Origin: an uncultured Acidobacteriota bacterium
Lineage (GTDB): Bacteria; Acidobacteriota; Terriglobia; UBA7540
Direction of reading: 5' to 3'
NCBI GenBank assembly: GCA_963804995.1
Contig: CAWDSK010000006.1
Location: forward strand, 1,792,001-1,856,000
DNA: 64,000 bases
Shown here: positions 702 to 63,314 of the stretch, piece after piece
Layout of the letters: the number at the start of each line of letters is the position of its first letter
How positions within the stretch are numbered: the first letter of the stretch is position 1
The notes under the pieces: generated by a model
Databases searched by the model: none
What the model was told of the DNA's origin: nothing
The model's input: only the letters and a program-made list of their open reading frames with translations
Program-made: the position numbers and the translations under genes

Positions 702-1024
702 GTAATTATCCTCCGGCAAAGCCGGAGGCTTTACGGTGGCTGGACCCTCAAAGGGGCCTGACCGCCACCGTCGGGAAAAGACCCCTCACCCGACCTCGTC
801 CCTCGGCCACCCTCTCCCCAAGGGAGAGGGAAAGGGTTTCACCACGCGGTAGCGCCCCCAGAGAAACCCCCGCCCTCTCCCCGGGGAGAGGGTGGACCGC
901 CGCCGGCGTTTTCATCAGCCGGGGCGGGACGGGTGAGGGGTCTTTTCCCGGCCAACGAACCGTTACTCCAGAAGATGTCAAACTCTTACTGCCTCACCGG
1001 CAGAGCCGGGGGATCTCCCGACGA
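702..1024 (-). mobile_element. Non-autonomous IS200/IS605-like element (both hairpin ends, no tnpA) carrying a REP doublet
   Basis: Subterminal hairpins CCTCCGGCaaaGCCGGAGG (710-728) and CCGGCagaGCCGG (997-1009) resemble IS200 ends; the interior (~782-941) is a CCCCTCACCC REP pair. Confidence 0.65.
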
Positions 1025-1448: not shown

Positions 1449-1661
1449 CTAGTGTGGTGTCCCGTGTTAGAGTTGACAATGGGTAGAACCCCCTCACCCG
1501 TCTGGCATCGGCTGATGAGAACGCCTCGGCCAGCCACCCTCTCCCCCAAAGGGGCGAGGGCAAGAAAATTAACTCTCCCCTCGCCCCCTTGGGGGAGAGG
1601 GGCTGGGGGGGGTGAGGGGGTCGGACAGCCTTGTCAAATAGTAACCGGGACACCACACTAG
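1449..1661. mobile_element. CTAG-flanked MITE type A (IS630-like ends) with REP doublet cargo
   Basis: CTAGTGTGGTGTCCCG ... CGGGACACCACACTAG; interior has two inverted CCCCTCACCC REPs. Confidence 0.85.
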
Positions 1662-11286: not shown

Positions 11287-11512
11287 CTAGTGTCGTGAGT
11301 CAGAAATTCGTTGATGATTCGAGAACCCCCTCACCCCCGGCCCCCTCCCCCAAAGGGGCGAGGGGGGAGTTTATTTGAGTTTACTGCCCTCGCCCCCTTG
11401 GGGAGAGGGTGGCCCGCCGCCAGCGTTTTCATCAGCCGGGGCGGGACGGGTGAGGGGGTCGCCCTGCAACCCAGTGAGACTTTGTCAGCGAACTTCTGAC
11501 TCAGGACACTAG
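11287..11512. mobile_element. CTAG-flanked MITE type B with REP doublet cargo
   Basis: CTAGTGTCGTGAGTCAGAAATTCG ... CGAACTTCTGACTCAGGACACTAG. Confidence 0.85.
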
Positions 11513-12681: not shown

Positions 12682-12762
12682 TAGCCCTCGCCCCCTTGGG
12701 GGAGAGGGTGGCCCGCCGCCGGCGTTTTCATCAGCCGGGGCGGGACGGGTGAGGGGGTCAAA
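12682..12762 (-). repeat. REP-like element downstream of the DUF559 gene
   Basis: 81-bp inverted copy of 13233-13313 (4 mismatches). Confidence 0.92.
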
Positions 12763-12788
12763 CGCCTGCGCCAGTACTTCGCCGCAGC

Positions 12789-13205
12789 TCACGACTCATC
12801 GGCAAAGGCATCGGGTAGCGACCGGACTATTTTCAGTACGTTCTCCACGAACAATTCGGGCGCCTTAAGAACCATTCCGTTTGGAAATCGTGTCACAACG
12901 TATCCCAGGTCTTTGAGTAGCGCGTCCCGGCGTGTGTCCCGTTTGGCCTGACTCGGCTGCCCGTGCACGCTGCCGTCCAGTTCCACAACCAGTCGCCGCC
13001 GCGGGCAGCAAAAATCGACGATGTATTGGCCGACGGGGTGCTGCCGACGAAATCTAACACCCTTGAATCTGAGAGTACGTAATAAATACCAGGCGATTAT
13101 TTCTGACTCAGTCTTGTCTTGGCGAAGGGTGCGCGCCCTGGCAATTGGTTCTGCGCCACGTGCAAGTGAACGTCGCTTGCGGCGGGGCGGGGCGCGTTTG
13201 GTCAT
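12789..13205 (-). CDS. DUF559 family endonuclease (Vsr-like PD-(D/E)XK)
   Basis: ARTLRQDKTESE, FRRQHPVGQYIVDF, VVELDGSVH, RD..RD..L...GY.V.RF.N; AGGAG SD before ATG 13205. Confidence 0.92.
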   Translation of the reverse strand: MTKRAPPRRKRRSLARGAEPIARARTLRQDKTESEIIAWYLLRTLRFKGVRFRRQHPVGQYIVDFCCPRRRLVVELDGSVHGQPSQAKRDTRRDALLKDLGYVVTRFPNGMVLKAPELFVENVLKIVRSLPDAFADES

Positions 13206-13232
13206 GTTCACCGTCTCCTTCTCCTTCACAAT

Positions 13233-13313
13233 TTTGACCCCCTCACCCGTCCCGCCCCGGCTGGTGAAAACGCCGGTTGCGGTCCACCCTCTCCCCCAAG
13301 GGGGCGAGGGCTA
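13233..13313 (+). repeat. REP-like element upstream of the DUF559 gene
   Basis: TTTGACCCCCTCACCCGTCCCGCCCCGGCTGGTGAAAACGCCGG...GGGGCGAGGGCTA. Confidence 0.92.
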
Positions 13314-13415
13314 GGATCCTTCCGTTTTGAGACTCGGCCATGGCTAAATTGGGCACCAATATACTTGACTCATCCACTGGGTTTTGGTATAGTTTTGCTT
13401 GTGAGGAGCGAAACC

Positions 13416-14384
13416 ATGCGCGAACCCCGTACCCTGCAAGAAGCCATTATCTATTTTTCGAACCCTGACAATTCCCGCGCCTACCTTGTGGCGAAGCGCT
13501 GGCCCCAGGGCGTCATCTGCCCAACCTGCGGGTCGGAAAAGGTCAAATTCAATCCGGCTCGCGGCGTCTGGCAATGCCCCCGCCATCATGCCCGGCGGCA
13601 ATTCTCCGTCAAGGTGGGCACCCTGTTTGAGGATAGCGCCATCGGCCTGGATAAGTGGCTCACGGCGGTGTGGATGCTCACCAACTGCAAGAACGGTATC
13701 AGTTCCTATGAAGTAGCCCGCGACCTGGGGGTCACGCAAAAGACCGCCTGGTTCATGCTGCACCGCATCCGGCTGGCCTTGCAGGACGAGGGCGGCGGCA
13801 AGTTGGGAGGAGAAGTTGAGGTTGACGAAACCTTTATCGGCGGCCTCTCCCGCAACATGCACATCGGTAAGCGGCGGGAGAAAATCCAGGGCACGGGCGG
13901 GCGCGATAAAATTGCGGTCCTGGGAATTCTGAAACGGCGAGGCAAAGTTCGCACTTCGGTCGTTCCCGATGTGACCCTCAAAACTCTTCGCGGCAGCGTT
14001 GTCGAAAACGTTTCGGCGGGCTCGCAGGTTTTCACGGACGCTTGGATTGGTTACCACGGGTTGGATTCCGAATATGTTCATAGCGTTATTGACCATGCCC
14101 AAGCCTATGCCGTGGAAAACGTCCACACCAACGGCCTCGAAAACTACTGGAGCCTTTTGCAGCGCACCCTCCAAGGGACCTACGTTAGCGTCGAACCGTT
14201 CCATTTGTTTCGTTACCTTGACGAGCAAGCCTTCCGTTACAACCAGCGCGAAGGACTTGATGATCGTGGCCGCTTCGATGCGGCGGTTTCCAGGATCATC
14301 GGTAAGCGCCTCACCTGGAATCGCCTCGCCGGAAAGACGCAAGCTCGTCCAACCTGTTCTAACGCACAAGGCAAGGCAACGTGA
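13416..14384 (+). CDS. IS1595 family transposase
   Basis: CPTCGS zinc ribbon, TQKTAWFMLHRIR HTH, EVDETFIGG, FTD, HTNGLENYWS, YLDEQAFRYN. Confidence 0.95.
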   Translation: MREPRTLQEAIIYFSNPDNSRAYLVAKRWPQGVICPTCGSEKVKFNPARGVWQCPRHHARRQFSVKVGTLFEDSAIGLDKWLTAVWMLTNCKNGISSYEVARDLGVTQKTAWFMLHRIRLALQDEGGGKLGGEVEVDETFIGGLSRNMHIGKRREKIQGTGGRDKIAVLGILKRRGKVRTSVVPDVTLKTLRGSVVENVSAGSQVFTDAWIGYHGLDSEYVHSVIDHAQAYAVENVHTNGLENYWSLLQRTLQGTYVSVEPFHLFRYLDEQAFRYNQREGLDDRGRFDAAVSRIIGKRLTWNRLAGKTQARPTCSNAQGKAT

Positions 14385-14401
14385 GCGCCGGGGGAAGCGG
14401 G

Positions 14402-14548
14402 TCAAGCCTTCGCCCGCTTCTTCCGCTGGCGTTGCTTCTTCCACTCCGCTTTCCTTCGCTGTAACTCCTCCCGCGGGACGGAGAAAATCTTGCTGATTGC
14501 AGCGTCGAAATTCTGGAATTCTGAGGTTTTTATCCCCTTCTGGCTCAT
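14402..14548 (-). CDS. Small basic passenger ORF inside IS1595
   Basis: MSQKGIKTSEFQNFDAAISKIFSVPREELQRRKAEWKKQRQRKKRAKA, convergent to the transposase. Confidence 0.55.
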   Translation of the reverse strand: MSQKGIKTSEFQNFDAAISKIFSVPREELQRRKAEWKKQRQRKKRAKA

Positions 14549-14726
14549 AAACATTAAATGCCTCAGTCCGTGACAATACCTTATCCACTCAACATCGTAC
14601 ACCTCCAACCCGTTCATCTCGCACCTTTCGAATGGATGAGTCAAGTAAGTTGGTGCCCTAAATTGGACAGGCTTGGCTTAGAAAAGGCGCGGCAAGGTTC
14701 ACTGGAATGGGATCGTACGTGAACGG

Positions 14727-20871: not shown

Positions 20872-22461
20872 TCAATGCAACTGCCCAAGCTGATAATTGA
20901 GGACCGCGTTTTGGGTCTCGTAATCGTACTTGGCGCTGGTGTTGGCGATTTGCGCCTGGGTGAGGTTCAATTGCGCCTGCGAAAGTTCCACAATCGAACT
21001 GAGCCCCAGATTGTAGCGCCCTTGTGCGAGTTGGAACGCCAGGGTGGCCTGCTCCAATAATTGAGCGGTGACGTCAAGCCGCTGGAACGCCGTGCCGGCA
21101 TCCAGCCACGCGGTGCGCACGTCGCGGGCGATGCGGTCCACCAAGTCGCGTGTCTCCTGGTCCGCCGCCTTGGCGCGCAGGTTGGCCTCCTGATGGCGGG
21201 CGGAAAAGAGGAATCCATTAAAGATCGGGATATTCACGTTGATGCCCGCCGCTGCGTAGCGGTCGGTAAGCGGAGCTTGATAAGCCGGCGTAAGGCCAGC
21301 CGCACCCGCCGCGCTGATGGTGGGCATCCACAAATCGCGTTCGGCGCGGGCATAACGCAGGGCGGCCTCTTCGCTGAAGCGGGCGCTCTGTAGGTCCGGC
21401 CGATTCTGCAGAGCCTGCGCGACGAGGTCCGTGGGGTCAGGGGGAGGCGCCGAGGGCATGGGTTCATCCACGAGGTTAAAGGGCTGAGGGGCGGCAAGCC
21501 CGAGGGCAGTGGCCAGATCCGCATAAGCCGCTTTTTCGTCGTTCTGCGCCTGGACCAGCAGCAGTTGCGCCTGCGCCAAATTTACCTTGGCGAAGCTGAC
21601 GTCCAGAAGAGACTTCAGCTTGTTCTTTTCGAGCGTGGTCACCTGCTCTGCCAGAATCTGGCGCGCCTTGACGGTCTCCTCCGCCACCTTGAGGACAGCC
21701 TCCGCGCGCAAGACGCCGAAGTAGGAGCGATTGACGCCCAGCAGCACATCCTGTTCAGTTTGCTTGGCGCTCAGGGAAGCGGCCTGCGCTCCCAGCCGGG
21801 CTGAGCCCACCAGGTTGGAAGTGCGCCCGAAGTCCGTAATGAGCTGGTTGACCATGAGACCGTTCGAATAACGGTTTAGGACGTTTGGGTCGTTCAGGAA
21901 GCCCGCGGCGATGCGGCTATTGGACATGGCCCCGGCCCCCGTCAAGCTGCCGTTGGCGGTCGGCAAGTAGGCGGATTTTGCTTCACGCGTCACTTGCTCA
22001 GCCGCCTGCGCATTGAAGGTGGCGGCCTGCAACACGGGATGATTCCGCAACGCCATCGCCTCCGCATCTTTCAAGGAAAGGTTGGGTGTTTGGGGTGGCG
22101 CAGCCAGAGCTGGGGCCATCACGAGCATCCCCAAAGTCACGGAGAAGACACGGAGAAAAAACTGTAGATCAACAGAATAGGGAATCGTAATTCCTAACCG
22201 CTTAACTCGAAGCGCTTTTCTCTGTGGTCTCTGTGCGCTCTGTGGTGAGTCTTTTCTCCGCGGCACGAGAAGGAAGGATTTCACCACAGAGGCCACAGAG
22301 GTCACAGAGAAGACACGGAGAAAAAACTGTAGATCAACAGAATAGGGAACCGTAATTCCTAACCGCTTAACTCGAAGCGCTTTTCTCTGTGGTCTCTGTG
22401 CTCTCTGTGGTGAGTCTTTTCTCTGCGGCACGAGATGAATTAATGTGAGAACATTTCTCAT
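20872..22461 (-). CDS. TolC family outer membrane efflux protein
   Basis: LSLKDAEAMALRNHP, RYNLGLSSIVELSQAQL; ATGA overlap with the upstream permease. Confidence 0.9.
   Translation of the reverse strand: MRNVLTLIHLVPQRKDSPQRAQRPQRKALRVKRLGITVPYSVDLQFFLRVFSVTSVASVVKSFLLVPRRKDSPQSAQRPQRKALRVKRLGITIPYSVDLQFFLRVFSVTLGMLVMAPALAAPPQTPNLSLKDAEAMALRNHPVLQAATFNAQAAEQVTREAKSAYLPTANGSLTGAGAMSNSRIAAGFLNDPNVLNRYSNGLMVNQLITDFGRTSNLVGSARLGAQAASLSAKQTEQDVLLGVNRSYFGVLRAEAVLKVAEETVKARQILAEQVTTLEKNKLKSLLDVSFAKVNLAQAQLLLVQAQNDEKAAYADLATALGLAAPQPFNLVDEPMPSAPPPDPTDLVAQALQNRPDLQSARFSEEAALRYARAERDLWMPTISAAGAAGLTPAYQAPLTDRYAAAGINVNIPIFNGFLFSARHQEANLRAKAADQETRDLVDRIARDVRTAWLDAGTAFQRLDVTAQLLEQATLAFQLAQGRYNLGLSSIVELSQAQLNLTQAQIANTSAKYDYETQNAVLNYQLGQLH
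22136..22435. repeat. 165-bp-period duplication of a TTCACCACAGAG...CTCTGTGGTGA palindromic element, in-frame in the TolC gene
   Basis: 22136-22270 is near-identical to 22301-22435. Confidence 0.88.
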
Positions 22462-25400
22462 TCCCCAACCTCCTTGGGACCCAATGCCGGGCTTGCCTGC
22501 CGCCGGCCGTACACCAGCAGATAGGCGGCGGGAACAATAAAAATCGTCAACAGCACGGACGAAGTCAGGCCGCCGATAATGGCGCGCGCCATGGGTGTGT
22601 ACTGTTCGGCCCCCGTCCCCAATTTCATGGCCATGGGAATCATTCCGATGATGGTGGCGAGTGAAGTCATCAGGATGGGCCGCAGGCGCACGCGGCAGGC
22701 CGTAATCACGGCATCAGCGGGCGACATCCCTTGCGTCTCCAGGTTATGCGCGAAGTCCACAATCAGGATGCTGTTGGAATCGGCGATGCCCACCAGCATC
22801 AACACTCCCATCAGCGACATCACGTTCAGCGTGCTGTGGGTGAGCGGCAGGATAATCAGCACTCCCACAAAGCCCATAGGAATGGCCAGCATGATCAGGA
22901 AGGGGTCGACGAAGGAACGAAACTGCGCTACCAGGATGAGATACAGCAGCATGAAAGAGAGCAGGAAGCCCAGCCCGAAACTCTTGAAGGAGGCTTCCAT
23001 GCCATTCACCATGCCGCGCAGATTAACCCGCACGTTGCCCGGGATATCGGTCTTGCGCAGGATGCCCCGTATTTCATCGGTGAGTTTCCCCAGATCCTCT
23101 CCCTTGGGGGTCACATACACATCCGAAACCCGCTGAATCTGGTAATGGTCTACTTCCGTGGGCGACTGCAGCGGGGTGAGTTTCACGACGCTGTCGAGCG
23201 TCGTAGGCTCTTTCAGGTTAGGCGCCCGCAGCGGAATATTCTTCAGGTCCGCGGGGTTGTGAATCGCTGCTGACCCGTTCTCGAAGTATTGCACGGTCAG
23301 GAAGTAGTCATTGCCGGTTTTCCGGTCCACCCAGTAGTTGGGCGCAATCATCAGGTTGGAATTAAGGGCGGTGATGACATTGTCCACCACATCCTTCTGA
23401 CTCAGCCCCAACTCCCCGGCGTGTACGCGGTCCACATCCAAACGCAGCGCGGGATAGTTCATATCCTGCGGAATATAGACTTCGCCCACGCCCCGCAAAC
23501 CGCGGATCTGCCGGGCCAGGTCCTCCGCGATCCCATAGCTCTGCTCCAATCTCGAACTGCTCACCTGCACATCGATGGGCGCCGGCATTCCCATATTCAA
23601 AATCGCATCCACCATGGAGCCGCTGGAGAAGAACGTGCGAATCTCCGGATCGTGCTCCCTCAACTCCTCCTGCAACTTCTCCATATAATCGAAACTGCTG
23701 CGCCGGTGGTCATCCTGTAACTGCACTTGCACGGTAGCCGTGTATTCCCCGGCGTTGGTGGTATAGAGCGAGGAGAAATCCGGTGTCACGCCGATGTTCG
23801 AGACCACCAGCTTGAAGTCCTGGGGATCCACGGTCTTCCGGATCAGGTTCTCCACCTTGGCCACGTACTGCTCGGTCACTTCTATGCGCGTGCCGGTGGG
23901 GGCCTTCAGGTTGATGGTGAATTGCCCCGCATCGGTGCGCGGGAAGAAGGCCAAGCCCAGAAAGGGGTAGATGGCCAGGCTGGCCAGGAACACTCCCGCC
24001 AGGAGCGCGACGGTGCGCCCCGGATGCACCAGCGCCCGCCGCACCCAAGACTCGTAGAAATCCAGAAGCTTGTTGAATTGCCGGTTAAATCCGGCATTAA
24101 ACCTCTCCCACCGGGAACGGTCGGCCGGCGTGGTCGGCTCAATTTCGTACTCGCCTTCTTTCTTCCCCTCGGCGTGCGGCACCTGCTTCAAGAAACGCGA
24201 GCAGAACAGCGGAATTACCGTCATCGCCACCACAAAAGATGCGAGGAGCGACAGGCAGAAAGCCAGAGCCAGCGCGGAGAAGAGAAATTTGCTGACGCCA
24301 TAGAGAAACACCACGGGGAGAAAATCTCCCAACGTCCACCAGGGTTGCGGCGAGGACGGCCAGATTCACTTCCGCCCCTCCCACCTCCGCCGCCACCATG
24401 GGTAAGGCGCCCATCTCCAAATGGCGATAGATGTTTTCGAGCGAGATCACGGAATTATCGATGACACGTGAAAAAGCGAGCGCCAGTCCCCCCAGAATCA
24501 TGGTGTTCACGGTGCTGCCCATCAGATTCAGCGCCACAAACATGGTCAGGGCGGAAAGTGGAATGGAAAGCAAAACCGCTGTGGTGGCGCGAAAACTGCC
24601 GAGAAAAACCAGAATCATGATGCTGGTGAGCAGCAGTCCCAGCAGGCCCTCATGCAGCACGGTGTGGATCGCTTCCTTGACGTACACGGATTGATCGAAC
24701 ACTAGGGTGGCCGTCATCTGCTTGGGAATGTCAAACAGGTGGCCGAGCAGCGCCCGTACTCCGTCCACCACCTCGATGGTGTTGGTATCGCCCCCTTGCT
24801 TCATGATGGGGATGTAACTGGAGCGCTGGCCGTCTACCCGCACCACGTTGTACTGAATTTGATTGGCGTCTTCGGCGTGCCCCACGTCTCCCACCGTAAC
24901 CCAGGAGGTCCCCACCGTCTTGATGGGGATACTGTTCAAGTCCTTCACCTGGTCCACCAGGCTATTGGAATAAACGTAGAAGTCGGTAGGGCCCATCTTC
25001 ACATCCCCGGCGGGCAGAATCAGGTTCGATTGGTTCACCGCATCCACCACGTCCATGGGAGTCATCTGGCGTGAAAAGAGCTTGTAGGGGTCCACGTACA
25101 CCATGGCCTGCCGGTATTTCCCGCCAAAGGGCGGCGGTATCGTTGCCCCCTTCACCACCGCAATCTGGTTGCGGATGGCAAACTGGGCAAAGTCGTGAAG
25201 TTGGGTTTCGTTGAGCCCCTCTCCTTTCACCGTCACCAGGCAAACGGGGAGGCTGGAGGCATCGAACTTCAGCACCACGGGCGGCAGGGTGCCGGGCGGC
25301 AGGCGCTTCAGGTCGGCGAGGGCGAGGTTCGAGAGTTCCGTCACATCCGCGTCGGCGTTCGTCCCGGGCTGGAAATAGACCTTGATGATGCTGACGCCCA

Positions 25401-25650
25401 ACATCGAACGCGACTCCATGTGGTCGATACCGCTGGCCATGGTGAAAAAGCGCTCAAGGGGGTTGGTGATGTCGATTTCGATATCCTGCGGAGGCATGCC
25501 GGAGTAAAACGTCGCCACCACCACCTCGGGGATATTGATGGGGGGGAAAAGGTCCACCGGCATGCGCGCCACACTGGTCACACCCAGGAGCAGCAGCACC
25601 AGACAGCAGACGATGATGAAATACGGGTTGCGGATTGAAAATCTTGGCAT
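22458..25650 (-). pseudogene. RND efflux permease (AcrB/CzcA family), frameshifted near 24328
   Basis: MPVDLFPPI, IDNSVISLENI, RLRPILMT; split into ORFs 24139-25650 and 22458-24332. Confidence 0.88.
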
Positions 25651-25680
25651 AGGACTTCCACCCTCACCTTTTGAGGAGTA

Positions 25681-25740
25681 GCTTTCAGTTTTCAGCTGTC
25701 AGCTATCAGCTATCAGCTTTCAGCTCTCAGCTATCAGCTC
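25681..25740. repeat. Heptamer tandem array (TCAGCTN)
   Basis: tcagctg tcagcta tcagcta tcagctt tcagctc tcagcta. Confidence 0.8.
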
Positions 25741-25836
25741 TTTGTTGGACCGCCCTGAAGCGGGGGCCTAACCCCGCCCAGGCCAGCGGCCCACCAGCGT
25801 TAACCAATGTCCACGAAGTCCCTGGACACTACCCTA

Positions 25837-26149
25837 GCCCTCTCCGAGGGGAGAGGGTGGACCGCGGCCAGCGCTTTCACCAACTGGCGCGGGACGGGTG
25901 AGGGGTCACTTCGTCAGCTTCGCCCCACCTGAAGCATCACCCGGCCACGCAGCGCCAACCCGTTCGGAATTCGCAACAATCCCTACGGAGGGAAACCGCG
26001 TGTAATCGTCTCTTGCCGCGTCTTTCCGTCTCCGAATCGGCCGTGAGCGAATACGGCTCAATTCCTCGCACGGAATAACCCCTCACCCGTCGCGCTTCCC
26101 GATCAAGTGCATCGGGACAGCGCGCCACCCTCTCCCCTCGGAGAGGGCT
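25837..26149 (-). pseudogene. Decayed REP-DUF559-REP cassette
   Basis: REPs at 25837-25905 and 26078-26149, oriented as around the intact gene; the interior translates to IRSRPIRRRKDAARDDYTR / GLLRIPNGLAL. Confidence 0.65.
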
Positions 26150-26220
26150 ATGAGTTCAGACTTACGTCAGCCCTGGGTTTCGCCTATCCCGACTCTGTCG
26201 GGACTCGCACAAAGCGCTCG

Positions 26221-26381
26221 CTGCCTACTGCTTTCTGCCTACCGCCTACTGCTTTCCGCCTTCTGCCATCCGCCTTCCGCCTTCTGCCATCCGCCTTCTG
26301 CCTACCGCTTACTGCTTTCCGCCTTCTGCCTTCCGCCTTCTGCCTTCTGCTTTCTGCCTTCCGCCTTCCGCCTTCTGCTTT
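26221..26381. repeat. Heptamer tandem array (CYGCYTW), about 23 units
   Basis: ctgccta ctgcttt ccgcctt ... directly after the adaptor gene stop. Confidence 0.9.
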
Positions 26382-26386
26382 CCCCC

Positions 26387-27916
26387 CTACTGCCCCACCC
26401 CGTGGTACTGCAGCATCTCAACAACCTGCGGACGCACTTCCTGGCCCGGCTTAAGACCGCTGCGGTCGCTCACAACCACCTCATCGCCCTCCGCGAGACC
26501 GGAAACAACTTCCGCATCGGTCGAGGTTTCAAGTCCCACCGTTACGACTCGAAGCTCAACCTTGCCGGCGGAATTCACCACATCCACGGTGGTCTGGCTG
26601 CCCTCACGGCTCACCGCCTCCAAAGGCACCACCAGCACGTTATCTTTCGCTTCCAGGGTTAGCGTGGTTTCCGCATACATTCCCGGCATCAAGAGCCGGT
26701 CGGAGTTGGGAACGTCGACCTCGGTGTGCATGGTGCGCGTGCCCTCCTGCACGTCCATGGAAAAACGGGCCACTTTGCCGGGAAAAGTACGGTTGAGAGC
26801 CGGCACCCGGACCTGGACGGCGTCTCCCACCCGGATGTAGCGCACCGAGGACTCGGGAACCGGGATAACCAATCGATACAAATCATCCTGGGATAATTTG
26901 ACCAGGGGCATGGCCTGGGTGCTGGAGCTCGTGCCCGCCTGCATCAAGGTTCCCAGGTTGGCGTAACGCTCGGTCACCACACCTGCGAACGGCGCGGTGA
27001 TGCGCGCGTAGTCGAACAGCGCCTGGTCGTGAACCAGTCTGGACCTATTCACCAGGAGCTGGCTTTCGGCGGCCGCCAGAGCTGACTCACCCGCGTCCAC
27101 CTGCGACGCTGCCGCCAGGTCTTTGCCCTGGGCATCGTCAACTTCCTGCTGCGCCACCAGGCCGGGCTGGCTTTCGAAGACGCTATTCAAGCGGGTAAAT
27201 TCGAGGTGAAGCACCCTGTACTGCGCCTGATACCGTTTCAGTTGGTGCTGGGCGCGGGAAACTTCGTCCGTGGCATTCTTGATGGAGGCCTGGTCCGTTT
27301 GCAATTGCGCCTCGAGCTCCGGTATTTCCAGCGTGGCCATCAGTTGACCCGCTTGCACGCGGCTGCCGTAATCGACGTACAACTTTTTGACGAACCCTGA
27401 CTCTTTCGCGTAAACGTCGATTTCCTGAAAGGGAACGAGCTCCGAGGAAAGCGTAATCTGCCGCTGCAAAGATTTCCGGGCTACTTTCGTCACCCCCACC
27501 GTGAGGACTGACTGGGACTCGCCCTTGGCTCGAACTTTTGTGCAGGAGGGGAGAAACACAAGTAAGATGGCGGCGAGGGCGACGGCTGCCCTGCGGCTAA
27601 AACTCCAATCAAGATTCGCTAAGCGCCAACTTCTTCTAAGCCTGCAAAAAATGGATTCACCACAGAGTACACAGAGACCACAGAGAAAAGAACTTATGTT
27701 TGCAGGGCCAGGGATAACGCTTCCTTCTTTTGAGACCCGCAGTTCTTTCTCCACATTCTCTCTGTGTCCTCCGTGTCCTCTGTGGTGAAATCTTTTTTGG
27801 GTTGCGGCCCGGTCGCGCCAGGTTAAATCTTTTCCGCCCACTGCGGCCAGAGAGAAAAGCCTTCCGGCAGTCCGTGGGAATCCGGCGCTACCAGGGAATC
27901 TCATTGTCTTAGTCAT
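26387..27916 (-). CDS. RND efflux periplasmic adaptor (MFP) subunit
   Basis: Lipobox LPSC, VYAKESGFV, ITAPFAGVVT, GLAEGDEVV; ATGA overlap with the upstream gene. Confidence 0.9.
   Translation of the reverse strand: MTKTMRFPGSAGFPRTAGRLFSLAAVGGKDLTWRDRAATQKRFHHRGHGGHRENVEKELRVSKEGSVIPGPANISSFLCGLCVLCGESIFCRLRRSWRLANLDWSFSRRAAVALAAILLVFLPSCTKVRAKGESQSVLTVGVTKVARKSLQRQITLSSELVPFQEIDVYAKESGFVKKLYVDYGSRVQAGQLMATLEIPELEAQLQTDQASIKNATDEVSRAQHQLKRYQAQYRVLHLEFTRLNSVFESQPGLVAQQEVDDAQGKDLAAASQVDAGESALAAAESQLLVNRSRLVHDQALFDYARITAPFAGVVTERYANLGTLMQAGTSSSTQAMPLVKLSQDDLYRLVIPVPESSVRYIRVGDAVQVRVPALNRTFPGKVARFSMDVQEGTRTMHTEVDVPNSDRLLMPGMYAETTLTLEAKDNVLVVPLEAVSREGSQTTVDVVNSAGKVELRVVTVGLETSTDAEVVSGLAEGDEVVVSDRSGLKPGQEVRPQVVEMLQYHGVGQ
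27654..27792. repeat. TTCACCACAGAG...CTCTGTGGTGAA palindromic element, in-frame in the adaptor gene
   Basis: Same family as 22279-22415. Confidence 0.82.
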
Positions 27917-28653
27917 CGTTTCCACTCTTTTGCTCCATCCCGAAGGTGATCCGCATTAAAATCGAGTAAATCCTTTAGCGCCGCGCTGAGTTCCGCGGGC
28001 GTGGCGCCCGGCTTTTTCGATAAATCAATAACCTGCTGCTTCATCTCCGCGATCTTGCCGGCCACCGCGGGGAGGTCGGGCATGAGATGCTGTGGAACGG
28101 TAACAATGCCGTGCCGGTCGCCGTGAATTAATTCACCGGGCTGAATCGCGAGGCCCCCCACCTCCACGGGTCCGCCGAATTCCACCACGTGAATATAGGC
28201 TCGGGAGATAGCCAAACGCCCCGCGAAAACCTGAAAACCGGCGGCTTCGATGCCGGGCAACTCGCGCGCCGCTCCGTTGGTGACCACTCCCACACAGCCC
28301 ATGGCCGTCAGGATATTGGCGTGCACCTTGCCGAAGAACGCGCCGGTGCCGGGTGGGTCGTCAATGTCTTGCATCACCACTACGCGCGGCGCGGGAATTC
28401 CGCCAATGTGCTCCCACCAGTCGGTCCGTTCCTCGTAGCGGCTGCCCACGATGGGGGGATCCGCGGAACGAACTTTGCACGTAGCCGCGTAGCCTACCAT
28501 GGGAGGCAGGCTTTTGAAGAGACAGCGAAAGCCTCCGGTGGCAATCCCTTCGTTGCGCAAACGGACGCCGAAGCTTTCAATGGCATCCGCCATGACACAA
28601 GTGTCGATGGCCTGGAGCTGCTGGATTTGCTCGGCGGTCAAAGGACTGTGCAC
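27913..28653 (-). CDS. RraA / HMG-aldolase family protein
   Basis: DTCVMADAIE, PMVGYAAT, VTNGAARE, PGELIHGDRHG; start approximate. Confidence 0.88.
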   Translation of the reverse strand: MHSPLTAEQIQQLQAIDTCVMADAIESFGVRLRNEGIATGGFRCLFKSLPPMVGYAATCKVRSADPPIVGSRYEERTDWWEHIGGIPAPRVVVMQDIDDPPGTGAFFGKVHANILTAMGCVGVVTNGAARELPGIEAAGFQVFAGRLAISRAYIHVVEFGGPVEVGGLAIQPGELIHGDRHGIVTVPQHLMPDLPAVAGKIAEMKQQVIDLSKKPGATPAELSAALKDLLDFNADHLRDGAKEWKR

Positions 28654-29571: not shown

Positions 29572-31428
29572 TTACTTCCCGAGCGTCGGAGCAGAACCCG
29601 GCAGCGTGTAACGCAGGTTGAAGAACACCATGTTGTTCGTGGCATTCGGGGGCTGGCCGGTGTGAAAATTCACATACCAGGGATCGCGCAGAAGGTACGA
29701 GTACTGGCCCATGAAATTGATGGCGCCCCACTTGGCATCCTTCCAGATCGTCTGGTTGAAGCCAAAAGTGGCCTCCTGGATGTCGCGGTTCTGCCCGCTC
29801 GAGGCGCCTGAGTAGCCATAGCCCAGAGTCGGCACTTTTTTGCCCATGTCGATGGCAGTGTTGCGCATGATGTAAATGCCGCCATAATACGCGTAGATCA
29901 TCACTTTCTTCTGGGTGTACTCAAAGCCGCTCACCGTTGAGCCGCTGTGAATGGGAGAAAGGGAGCCGTCGGCGTGCGCGATCACGTCTGGGGCCTGACC
30001 AAAGATGTAGCGGCCACCGCCGTCACTCCAGAAGTTGTTCGTCAAGATGCGGAATCCCTTAAACGGTTCCACATGCAGATTCACGAAACCGCCCCCGCCC
30101 TGCAATGAAAAGGTGCCGGGAGCGACGGCAGGGGTTGAACTAGTGGCAACGGCGCCGGGATTGTAGACTTTGAAGTTCCGCTCCACTCCCCCGATTTCAA
30201 AGTGAACCTGTTTGTAAGGATCAAATGCCAGTTTCGCAATGACATCAGGAGCAACGTTGGGAGTAGCTATGCCACCCGAGCTTGCGCCAAAGTCCAATTC
30301 AGCCGCATAGGGTGTAGCGAGACCTGCGGGAAGGGTGATGGAGCCGCCGCCTGATGAACCGCCACCATACTGATCAGGACTGTCGAGTGCCACCGCGAAG
30401 GCCACTGTCTTGGTGGGGTGGTAAACCACCCGCAATTCCGGGATGCGTCCCCAAAACAAGCCCGCCTGGTAATTCACGTCTATATCTTGCGAGTAAAAGA
30501 GATCACCGGGAAGAGGCGAAATACCTTTGCGGCCCGGGGTGAGCAAACTCCACGTCTGGCCGCCGAGGACTTCCCACGAACCTCTTCGCACGTCGACCCA
30601 GTACAACCGCGACCGGAGAAGGTTGCTGTTACTCGTCACCGCAATGTTTTGGCTGGCAGGGGTGCCCAGAAAGTCGGCTTCCATGTAACCGATTACGTGC
30701 GCGCCTTTCACGTCCGCGTCGGCGCGGAAGCCAATCCGGGAGTTCTGCATGCTCAGACGGAACTCGCTCAGATTGGTCTGATAGGGAAGGATGCCACCCG
30801 TCGCCACGGCGGCATAGGGAATGCTTCCGAAGCTGGTCCCGATGTTCCCACCCGCTGTCTTGGTACGAAATACGCTGGTGAAATCCATAAACCCAACCGG
30901 CATCAAAGTCGCACTGCCAATGTGGAACTGCAGGGGTGATGTTTCATCCCCCGCCGGCGCTGCGGATTTCGGTGTCGGCGAAACTCCCCCCGCCGAGGGA
31001 ATCAAGGTGGAAGAAATCAGATTCCCACCGATACCGGCAGTGGATTTCTCTGCGGTGTGCGGAATGATCGGGGTGGTTGAGGCCACCTGGCCAAGGTTCG
31101 GTGACTGGGGCTGCAGGGGTTGTGGCTGCACCGCTTGCTGCGTTGGTGCAGCGGGTTGCGACAACTTTTCGAGCAGTTGCTTCTGAGCCGCTAGGGCCTT
31201 TTGCATTTGCTCGATCTGCTGCTGTTGCAGGGCCATCTGTTGCTTGAGAAGAGTGATTTCATCATTCGTGTCTGTTTTGGTTTTGGCGGCCGTCTCCGCC
31301 GGAGGTGTTGCCTTCTTCTCCGTCGAGGACGGGTTATCACTGCCAAAGTTCGACATGGGGGACAACCACACGAGTAGCGCCACCATACCCACAAACAAAC
31401 CTGTAACCAGCCTGCGTTTCTGCATCAT
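29572..31428 (-). CDS. Outer membrane porin-like protein with N-terminal coiled coil
   Basis: Signal peptide, Q-rich coiled coil, beta-barrel-like segments (QNSRIGF, EADFLG, FNLRYTLP); AAGGAG SD. Confidence 0.75.
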   Translation of the reverse strand: MMQKRRLVTGLFVGMVALLVWLSPMSNFGSDNPSSTEKKATPPAETAAKTKTDTNDEITLLKQQMALQQQQIEQMQKALAAQKQLLEKLSQPAAPTQQAVQPQPLQPQSPNLGQVASTTPIIPHTAEKSTAGIGGNLISSTLIPSAGGVSPTPKSAAPAGDETSPLQFHIGSATLMPVGFMDFTSVFRTKTAGGNIGTSFGSIPYAAVATGGILPYQTNLSEFRLSMQNSRIGFRADADVKGAHVIGYMEADFLGTPASQNIAVTSNSNLLRSRLYWVDVRRGSWEVLGGQTWSLLTPGRKGISPLPGDLFYSQDIDVNYQAGLFWGRIPELRVVYHPTKTVAFAVALDSPDQYGGGSSGGGSITLPAGLATPYAAELDFGASSGGIATPNVAPDVIAKLAFDPYKQVHFEIGGVERNFKVYNPGAVATSSTPAVAPGTFSLQGGGGFVNLHVEPFKGFRILTNNFWSDGGGRYIFGQAPDVIAHADGSLSPIHSGSTVSGFEYTQKKVMIYAYYGGIYIMRNTAIDMGKKVPTLGYGYSGASSGQNRDIQEATFGFNQTIWKDAKWGAINFMGQYSYLLRDPWYVNFHTGQPPNATNNMVFFNLRYTLPGSAPTLGK

Positions 31429-31558
31429 TCGCTCCTTAACTTGTTGTGCTGTGAGACTGCCCAAGGTTTCTTGAAATACCTTGGAACAACTACGACCATA
31501 TTGTTCTGACAGTCGGAGTCATGGTGACGGAGCACGATTACCAAATTGTGTTACGAAT

Positions 31559-50676: not shown

Positions 50677-50903
50677 TTAGTGACCTGAGTCACAAGTTCG
50701 CTGATTATTAGAGAACCCCCTCACCCGTCCCGCCCCGGCTGATGAAAACGCCGGTGGCGGTCCACCCTCTCCCCCAAAGGGGCGAGGGCGACAAATTCAG
50801 ATTAACTCTCCCCTCGCCCCTTTGGGGGAGAGGGGCGGGGGTGAGGGGGTCGTCCTGGAACCCATTGAGACTTTGTCAGCGAACTTCTGACTCAGGACAC
50901 TAG
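50677..50903. mobile_element. MITE type B with inverted REP cargo
   Basis: TTAGTGACCTGAGTCACAAGTTCG ... CGAACTTCTGACTCAGGACACTAG. Confidence 0.85.
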
Positions 50904-50950
50904 TGACTCGTGCGTACGGAAGGCAATCGATGCGCCAATCAGCAGCAGCC

Positions 50951-62981: not shown

Positions 62982-63208
62982 CTAGTGTCCTGAGTCAGAA
63001 GTTCGCTGACAAAGTCTCACTGGGTTCAAAGGGGACCCCCTCACCCGTCCCGCCCCGGCTGATGAAAACGCCGAGGGCGGGCCACCCTCTCCCCCAAGGG
63101 GGCGAGGGCAGTAAATTCAAATGAACTCCCCCCTCGCCCCCTTGGGGGAGAGGGGCCGGGGGGAGGGGGTTTTCCAATAATCAGCGGACTTCTGACTCAG
63201 GACACTAG
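62982..63208. mobile_element. MITE type B with REP doublet cargo
   Basis: CTAGTGTCCTGAGTCAGAAGTTCG ... CGGACTTCTGACTCAGGACACTAG. Confidence 0.87.
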
Positions 63209-63314
63209 ATTTCGCTTCACGTTCCGACTATTATCGGTTCCTTCTCTGTAGCTTCAGTTCGAGGGTGGCTGCCGCCGCCTTGATAATCGCTGGAGAAGGA
63301 AACGGAGTTCCGCA

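Follow-up and report, generated by a model that had tools for sequence, protein, structure and literature searches.

The gap in the RND operon and the unit within it

The intergenic gap that separates a membrane-fusion gene (26387-27925) from an AcrB-family gene starting at 25650, both identified with Pfam, occupies positions 25651..26386 on the minus strand of the window, the 64,000-nt stretch of DNA analysed here. The gap is rich in several repeat types and measures 739 nt. Among 29 fetched loci of relatives, the 20 in which both genes are visible have gaps of 8-1092 nt; because these relatives are of other species, no exact empty-site junction is readable. The relatives' gaps hold unrelated repeats, with single arms of the kind described below in two of them, and the site is empty in that neither the present unit nor an intact cassette occurs at any of the 20 loci. 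Judging by its contents, the gap appears to be a landing ground for repeats. Arrays of 7-nt repeats stand on both sides of the unit in the same gap (26215-26386 and 25680-25740). The AcrB-family gene itself is read in two frames on the minus strand, 24139-25650 and 22458-24332, with a one-base shift near 24330, and most relatives' AcrB-family loci have a single frame of ~1070 codons or more; the split may be real or an assembly error. Also on the minus strand, a 630-aa ORF (29572-31464) has no significant Pfam match.

Within the gap lies a gene-less stretch of 316 bases composed of two inward-facing hairpin repeats of ~73 nt, here called arms, and a 170-nt interior (25907-26076). The left arm (25834..25906, plus strand, 73 nt) is a BoxC-like double-hairpin repeat downstream of the gene remnant, with its G-rich head pointing inward; it scores 60.7 bits with nhmmer, as one of 403 matches to the arm family in the 7.55-Mb genome, and is predicted to form two hairpins at -19.3 kcal/mol (DNA parameters). 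The right arm (26077..26151, minus strand), which was the upstream arm of the former gene, likewise has its head inward, scores 46.1 bits and has a predicted fold of -22.9 kcal/mol. The arms are thus 73-75 nt long, each with a predicted fold of two hairpins, and share two perfect inverted repeats, an outer one of 26 nt (25835-25860 / 26125-26150) and an inner one of 14 nt (25893-25906 / 26078-26091); their middle hairpins are not alike. The first-pass annotation of the window had described this as a repeat pair around a DUF559 remnant and as the only inward-facing pair besides that of the window's intact nuclease. The pair is real, with its repeats where they had been placed, but it is not the only other one, as the repeats at 869-941(+) and 1489-1561(-) also face inward, 547 nt apart and without DUF559 similarity.

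Read on the minus strand, the interior retains parts of the 3' half of a DUF559 gene of the short subfamily, a shorter type found in relatives within the genus, in which the stop codon abuts the repeat head. A 5' junction of ~19 nt (26058..26076) is colinear in all five copies of the family described below (alignment A1). Its comparison with upstream spacers gave weak similarity, and neither a spacer origin for these first 19 nt nor an 8-nt deletion of the LD codons, both of which were considered, was established. The core remnant (25950..26057) runs from just past the lost ELD motif to a PNG-x-x-L motif. The two minus-strand peptides in different frames that had been read by eye are present at 26052-25996 and 25982-25950, and the shift between them is one extra base at ~25983 relative to an intact gene. 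Some 39 nt are then missing, by comparison with the intact short-subfamily gene L060, before a remnant of the last codons and stop (25907..25938; 23/30 identity to the 3' end of L060). This tail abuts the repeat head as intact short-subfamily genes do, most of which have a Lys-stop-repeat junction. With homology that begins only after ELD, a one-base frameshift and one stop, the remnant has no open frame with a start and an ELDG motif, and the copy in the window is itself dead, non-coding DNA.

Origin of the interior in short-subfamily DUF559 genes

A DNA HMM built from 22 intact short-subfamily genes, all from relatives and none from this genome, recognised the interior with a score of 29.4 bits (E 5.7e-7) when run against the whole genome, whereas a long-subfamily HMM built likewise gave it 3.7 bits. 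None of 1000 dinucleotide shuffles of the interior reached the real score with the short-subfamily model, the best scoring 4.6. Compared with L060, the interior is identical at 73 of 107 positions in addition to the tail, with none of 500 shuffles as high. The similarity to intact PF04480 genes is therefore significant, colinear and on the sense strand. A model made from the interiors retrieved 38 non-self matches, mostly inside PF04480 match coordinates (compared by eye). Homologues carry the NCBI label Terriglobia. A six-frame search of the genome with Pfam PF04480 at E<=10 did not detect the interior, and blastn against 40 relatives returned just three weak matches to it, one within a DUF559 gene.

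The choice of subfamily decides what these comparisons yield. The first-pass annotation had aligned the interior by eye with the intact nuclease of the window, and that alignment is not significant (DNA score 25, with 134/500 shuffles as high); positions 25907-26076 are absent among the matches listed in a tblastn search of this nuclease against window and genome, and a frameshift-aware protein profile of 119 of its homologues is borderline at 24.1 bits, with 1/150 shuffles as high. It is with the short-subfamily DNA HMM that the predicted significance over shuffled controls holds. The failure of the window's own nuclease to give a significant match might suggest that the resemblance is fortuitous, an explanation with a negligible chance of being right and refuted by the genome-wide E value, the shuffles with the right subfamily and the 38 matches of the interior model. 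The interior is, with near certainty, of DUF559 origin, and from the DNA comparison, the HMM scores and the tree its parent was of the short subfamily and not the window's own nuclease. The exact parent type was not found as an intact gene in this 92%-complete assembly. The sole trace in this genome of the part lost from the five copies described next is at C2:770643-770746 (locus L006), where the 5' portion of a short-subfamily DUF559 gene, interrupted by a stop in frame, is found.

A family of five copies with shared deletions

Used as a query, the interior retrieves four further copies, at C3:608200, C3:809340, C3:1154178 and C5:791393, and there is no sixth significant match in the genome search. 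The five copies of this family (family A) lie on 3 contigs, are 158-170 nt long and colinear, and all stand between inward-facing arms. Each has lost the start together with some 60 initial codons, up to ELD, and three of them begin to align slightly later than the others. Before the stop, every copy is 39-44 nt short of L060, as judged by length for C5:791393, whose tail aligned poorly. Frameshifts vary from copy to copy. In a tree of 35 rows, from which one duplicate and one locus without a match were left out, a branch that lies within the short subfamily sets the five copies apart from all other rows, with a support of 84/66 that is not strong (66 being the SH-aLRT value); four of the copies are grouped at 96/89, and the window's intact gene is placed far from all five. 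The interiors are 60-86% identical and the arms 83-100% identical between copies, a contrast to be expected of arms that serve as conserved cis parts; alternatively, arm conservation could stem from gene conversion among about 400 copies.

The simplest reading of the shared 5' and 3' deletions is a single deletion history followed by copying, and on the sequence comparison this is very probably what happened. The first-pass annotation had instead proposed that the window's own cassette inserted a second time and then decayed in place. What stands of that proposal is that the interior arose by internal deletion and that the cassette of repeats and nuclease is mobile; the second insertion does not stand, since the remnant belongs to another subfamily, and neither does decay at this site, since four more copies elsewhere share both deletions, which most likely preceded insertion here. 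The more general possibility that whole cassettes inserted at every site and were each eroded locally draws some support from the frequency with which independent deletion families arise and from the age that identities of 60-86% allow. It is nonetheless improbable and largely refuted, as the 5' breakpoint would have had to recur identically, and the 3' deletion almost so, in five copies, independent miniatures in relatives vary in their breakpoints, and none of the relatives' loci compared holds a cassette here.

That the interior is retained for a function, for instance as an RNA element tuning the efflux operon, is very improbable: length and both ends are kept in five diverged copies and the window copy lies between two co-oriented genes, but the branches of the copies (0.09-0.53) exceed the tree's median end branch of 0.081, their frameshifts are unlike, relatives' sites hold unrelated repeats, and a search of 28 further genomes of the genus, with 100 candidates scored per genome, did not recover the full-length form. 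Exact-pattern scans for family-A junctions returned 0 loci in genome contigs and 0 in metagenome contigs. The search for target duplications was negative for all five copies, the best flank repeats being <=10 nt and far from the ends, although a very short or decayed duplication could escape. Among the sequencing runs listed, six DNA runs of small share and no RNA run contain this DNA; no piece in the four that were compared spans the stretch, and hence no full or empty allele was read. Three of the five copies have a common downstream neighbour beyond the arm, which suggests movement within larger pieces.

Intact cassettes and other deletion derivatives

An intact repeat-DUF559-repeat cassette of the long subfamily is found in the window at 12684..13310 on the minus strand, with its gene at 12789-13229 (Pfam PF04480, E 2.1e-33; 3hrl_A, E 4.7e-17). 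It is a relative of the remnant's parent and not the parent, and it is absent downstream of the same gene in 24/24 relatives' loci. A 414-aa ORF that adjoins it (13344-14588, minus strand) has neither a significant Pfam match nor an NCBIfam match. PF04480 matches occur in 27/29 genomes, and among 39 intact genes examined, 3 of them from this genome, simple patterns place a repeat head just 3' of the gene in 37 and on both sides in 21. After masking of the cassette, the proteins encoded within ~1.5 kb have none in common among 24/24 short-subfamily and 17/17 long-subfamily loci, some of which are short. Different neighbours at all 41 intact cassettes argue that the repeat-nuclease-repeat cassette is mobile. 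Direct repeats flank some intact cassettes, of ~40 nt at L003 (G000:C6:1390500-1391130) and, ending in a stop codon, of 27 nt at L051.

Gene-less derivatives have appeared more than once. A second miniature family in this genome, with 3 copies of 247-255 nt, derives from the long subfamily and has kept both gene ends and lost the core; together with a lone 179-nt miniature of the same subfamily, it is located at C2:342850, C3:684109, C6:2041739 and C6:617626. At L111 (G008:C2:209700-212800), three full short-subfamily cassettes alternate in a tandem array with three miniatures whose breakpoint is unlike that of family A and two of which have 164-nt interiors. In the relatives' loci that were fetched, which were a selection from the matches, 16/62 inward-facing pairs score as DUF559-derived. 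From these comparisons, deletion derivatives of the cassette have arisen time and again. The idea that miniatures converge on ~165 nt was dropped, as the relatives' DUF559-derived interiors span 164-260 nt. In G010 and G019 (L176, L186 and others), interiors of ~110 nt lie between repeat heads in >15 copies per genome and on many contigs, without DUF559 similarity in the loci scored.

The window copy had also been put forward as independent support for the association of repeat and nuclease. It does not serve as such, since the five copies amount to one event; the association holds for other reasons, namely the intact cassettes and the separate deletion families here and in relatives.

Insertion-sequence ends around arms and miniatures

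A second source of dispersal has to be considered, as two insertion-sequence types of this genome have ends that bound MITEs of 160-515 bp. The first is an 1830-bp IS701-like element with 7 near-identical copies (C1:327296-329125, L205, and six others), the transposase of which has IS701 as its best match at E 1.9e-38, below the curated cut-off. Each copy is flanked by an 18-22-nt palindromic duplication, the element thus targeting other hairpin repeats, and among the MITEs delimited by its ends are some with intact or deleted DUF559 cassettes inside. The second is IS630, with at least 2 copies, one of them at C2:723858-725021. MITEs of ~227 bp with IS630 ends and of ~211 bp with related ends carry hairpin arms, and those of these types in the window are at 62982-63209, 50677-50904, 11287-11512 and 1449-1662. 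An arm is found inside 25/27 inward end pairs of the ~227-bp type and 47/50 of the ~211-bp type. Genome-wide, 107 of the 403 arms lie within 200 nt of one of three such end motifs, and about three quarters are not near them.

For family A, IS630-type ends (scores 38-54, against a median of 18 in random windows, 2/300 of which reach >=40) are present on both sides of C3:809340 and on one side of C5:791393. None is found at the window copy or at C3:608200, and C3:1154178 has at most a possible IS-like end, which cuts its arm, and no IS630-MITE ends. In the second miniature family, IS701-like ends are present and stand on both sides of 2/3 copies, and in relatives they adjoin the DUF559-derived miniatures on at least one side in 12/16 cases and on both sides in 8/16. 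For intact genes the corresponding figures, with the patterns used, are 5/39 for IS701-like ends on both sides and 0/39 for IS630-type ends, from which it follows that most intact cassettes moved without those two insertion sequences. Equally, IS-type ends around so many miniatures mean that dispersal alone is no proof of mobilisation by the nuclease.

What moves the miniatures

One question raised by family A is how a unit that encodes nothing is copied. The reading that we hold, just tilting toward acceptance, is that the miniature derives from a hairpin-DUF559-hairpin cassette and spread as a unit after its deletions, probably in part through intact DUF559 nucleases acting on the arms. Taken separately, the view that a DUF559 nuclease is a mover of the miniatures is mildly favoured. 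In such a scheme, an intact cassette would supply the nuclease in trans; this would bind arms folded in single-stranded DNA and nick beside them, and host repair would then place a copy of the segment bounded by the arms at a new intergenic site. Of the four duplications, that of C3:809340 / C5:791393 was more likely carried by an IS630-type MITE. The nuclease step is suggested by the layout, by the kinship of DUF559 with Vsr and homing endonucleases in the accessible part of PMC3424549, and by the activity of SsnA in that of PMC11893778. The different flanks of all intact short and long cassettes speak for the scheme, and the long direct repeats at L003 and L051 would fit insertion by cutting and repair. 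Against it stand the lack of a target duplication at the five copies and the IS701-like ends of 12/16 relatives' miniatures, as known transposases explain much of the dispersal; no biochemistry of DUF559 on these arms was found in the literature.

Alternatively, the miniatures could be passive cargo, with a cassette deleted once and later copied by other machinery, the nuclease playing no part in their case; IS630-/IS701-like transposases acting on enclosing MITEs, RAYT-type elements, or recombination between arms could all serve. We consider this a plausible but rather doubtful account. The MITEs that share their ends with the 7 IS701-like and at least 2 IS630 elements, the 107/403 arms within 200 nt of such ends, the IS630-type ends at two of the five copies, and the IS701-like ends in the second miniature family and in relatives all favour it, and the tandem array of G008 fits plain recombination. 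It is at odds with the window copy and C3:608200, which have no such ends, with C3:1154178, where an IS-like end is only possible, and with the roughly three quarters of arms that lie away from the three tested end motifs, which cover IS701-like and IS630 ends only. Furthermore, intact cassettes are mostly without these ends and nonetheless all occupy different places.

Partial involvement of the nuclease stays the reading adopted here, and a broader proposal can be offered tentatively, with slightly less than even confidence: hairpin-DUF559-hairpin units may constitute a class of selfish elements moved by a single Vsr-like nuclease without a transposase, which would also copy miniatures and spread BoxC-type repeats, as a PD-(D/E)XK counterpart of the RAYT-REP and Ssn-NTS pairs.

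Comparison with known systems

The unit is MITE-like. Bacterial MITEs are described, in the accessible text of PMC3733652 and PMC3184786, as short, non-coding, inverted-repeat-bounded elements in dispersed intergenic copies that come from a gene-carrying unit, and the remnant likewise has perfect inverted repeats of 26 and 14 nt, no intact frame and 5 dispersed copies with the same ends. It differs in that its ends are 73-nt double hairpins instead of the 15-30-bp TIRs given for MITEs in those portions, in that its parent gene is a PD-(D/E)XK nuclease instead of a DDE transposase, and in that no target-site duplication was found, with no direct repeat >10 nt beside any of the 5 copies. The IS630-type ends around 2/5 copies confound any sign of movement by a cognate enzyme in trans.

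In layout the parent cassette resembles NTS-ssnA-NTS or a REPtron, though its enzyme is that of neither. In the available portion of Chenal et al. 2025 (PMC11893778), NTS-ssnA-NTS is a small nuclease gene between hairpin repeats, hundreds of which are scattered, and is likened to a mobile element; SsnA is reported there to cut its own hairpins in ssDNA. The DUF559 cassette is also a small nuclease gene between repeats scattered in hundreds of copies. However, SsnA is a GIY-YIG enzyme and Pfam gives only PF04480 and PF18741 here, cleavage was demonstrated for SsnA whereas the DUF559 cassette is known here from sequence alone, and it is for DUF559 units that gene-less internal-deletion families are the point. 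DUF559 is never mentioned in the accessible portion of that paper. As in REPtrons and REPIN-RAYT systems, an enzyme gene has palindromes on its two sides, and many more palindromes occur elsewhere without an enzyme. Here, however, the enzyme is PF04480 and not an HUH tyrosine transposase, and the repeat is a 73-nt double hairpin instead of a palindrome of 20-40 bp tagged with GTAG or CGTC; the arm has no GTAG end, and a GTC-containing word occurs at its head. Moreover, the DUF559 cassette as a whole is mobile, whereas REPtrons do not self-propagate according to the sections of PMC3733652 at hand.

The arms resemble BoxC/PIT/TMECO triplex repeats, near which no mobility gene is reported in the accessible part of Holder et al. 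2015 (PMC4666352). Both arms have a C-rich tract, a G-rich partner and a third G-rich tract in the same order as BoxC/TMECO, and the spacer before the third tract, which holds the second hairpin, is 38 nt in one arm and 39 nt in the other as against 3 nt. A 38-nt spacer is found in 236/397 genome copies, and the strict BoxC consensus fits only 1 site; from the order of the tracts, the arms are best described as a putative long-spacer form of the BoxC/TMECO repeat. Finally, the intact gene matches the DUF559/Vsr-like nucleases both by PF04480 and by PDB 3hrl, a group placed with Vsr and a group I intron homing endonuclease in the portion of PMC3424549 available, but the remnant encodes nothing, and no intron or intein is present here.

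Significance of the family and a feature of the intact genes

No description of a DUF559-hairpin link was found in the literature searched, which had most subscription papers outside it. What is new here is the proof of copying from shared deletions, together with the size of the insertion-sequence confound. The value of the window copy is as evidence, in that the deletions common to all five copies indicate that a unit with arms but no gene can be copied. Family A also supplies a natural substrate, consisting of the arms and ~165 nt, on which a large nuclease family of unknown function could be tested. Were the nuclease to prove the mover, the spread of BoxC-type repeats would be accounted for, a spread to which Holder et al. 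could link no mobility gene in the accessible part of their paper (PMC4666352). A warning accompanies these points, because most dispersed DUF559 miniatures in the genus ride in IS701-like or IS630 ends and copy number alone is consequently no sign of nuclease-driven mobility.

With regard to the intact genes, a -10-like hexamer, often with TG upstream, lies ~6 nt before the start codon of short-subfamily DUF559 genes in 17/19 loci scanned (L062-L064, L083-L093, L096, L105, L106, L108 and L109), a position that suggests leaderless transcripts.
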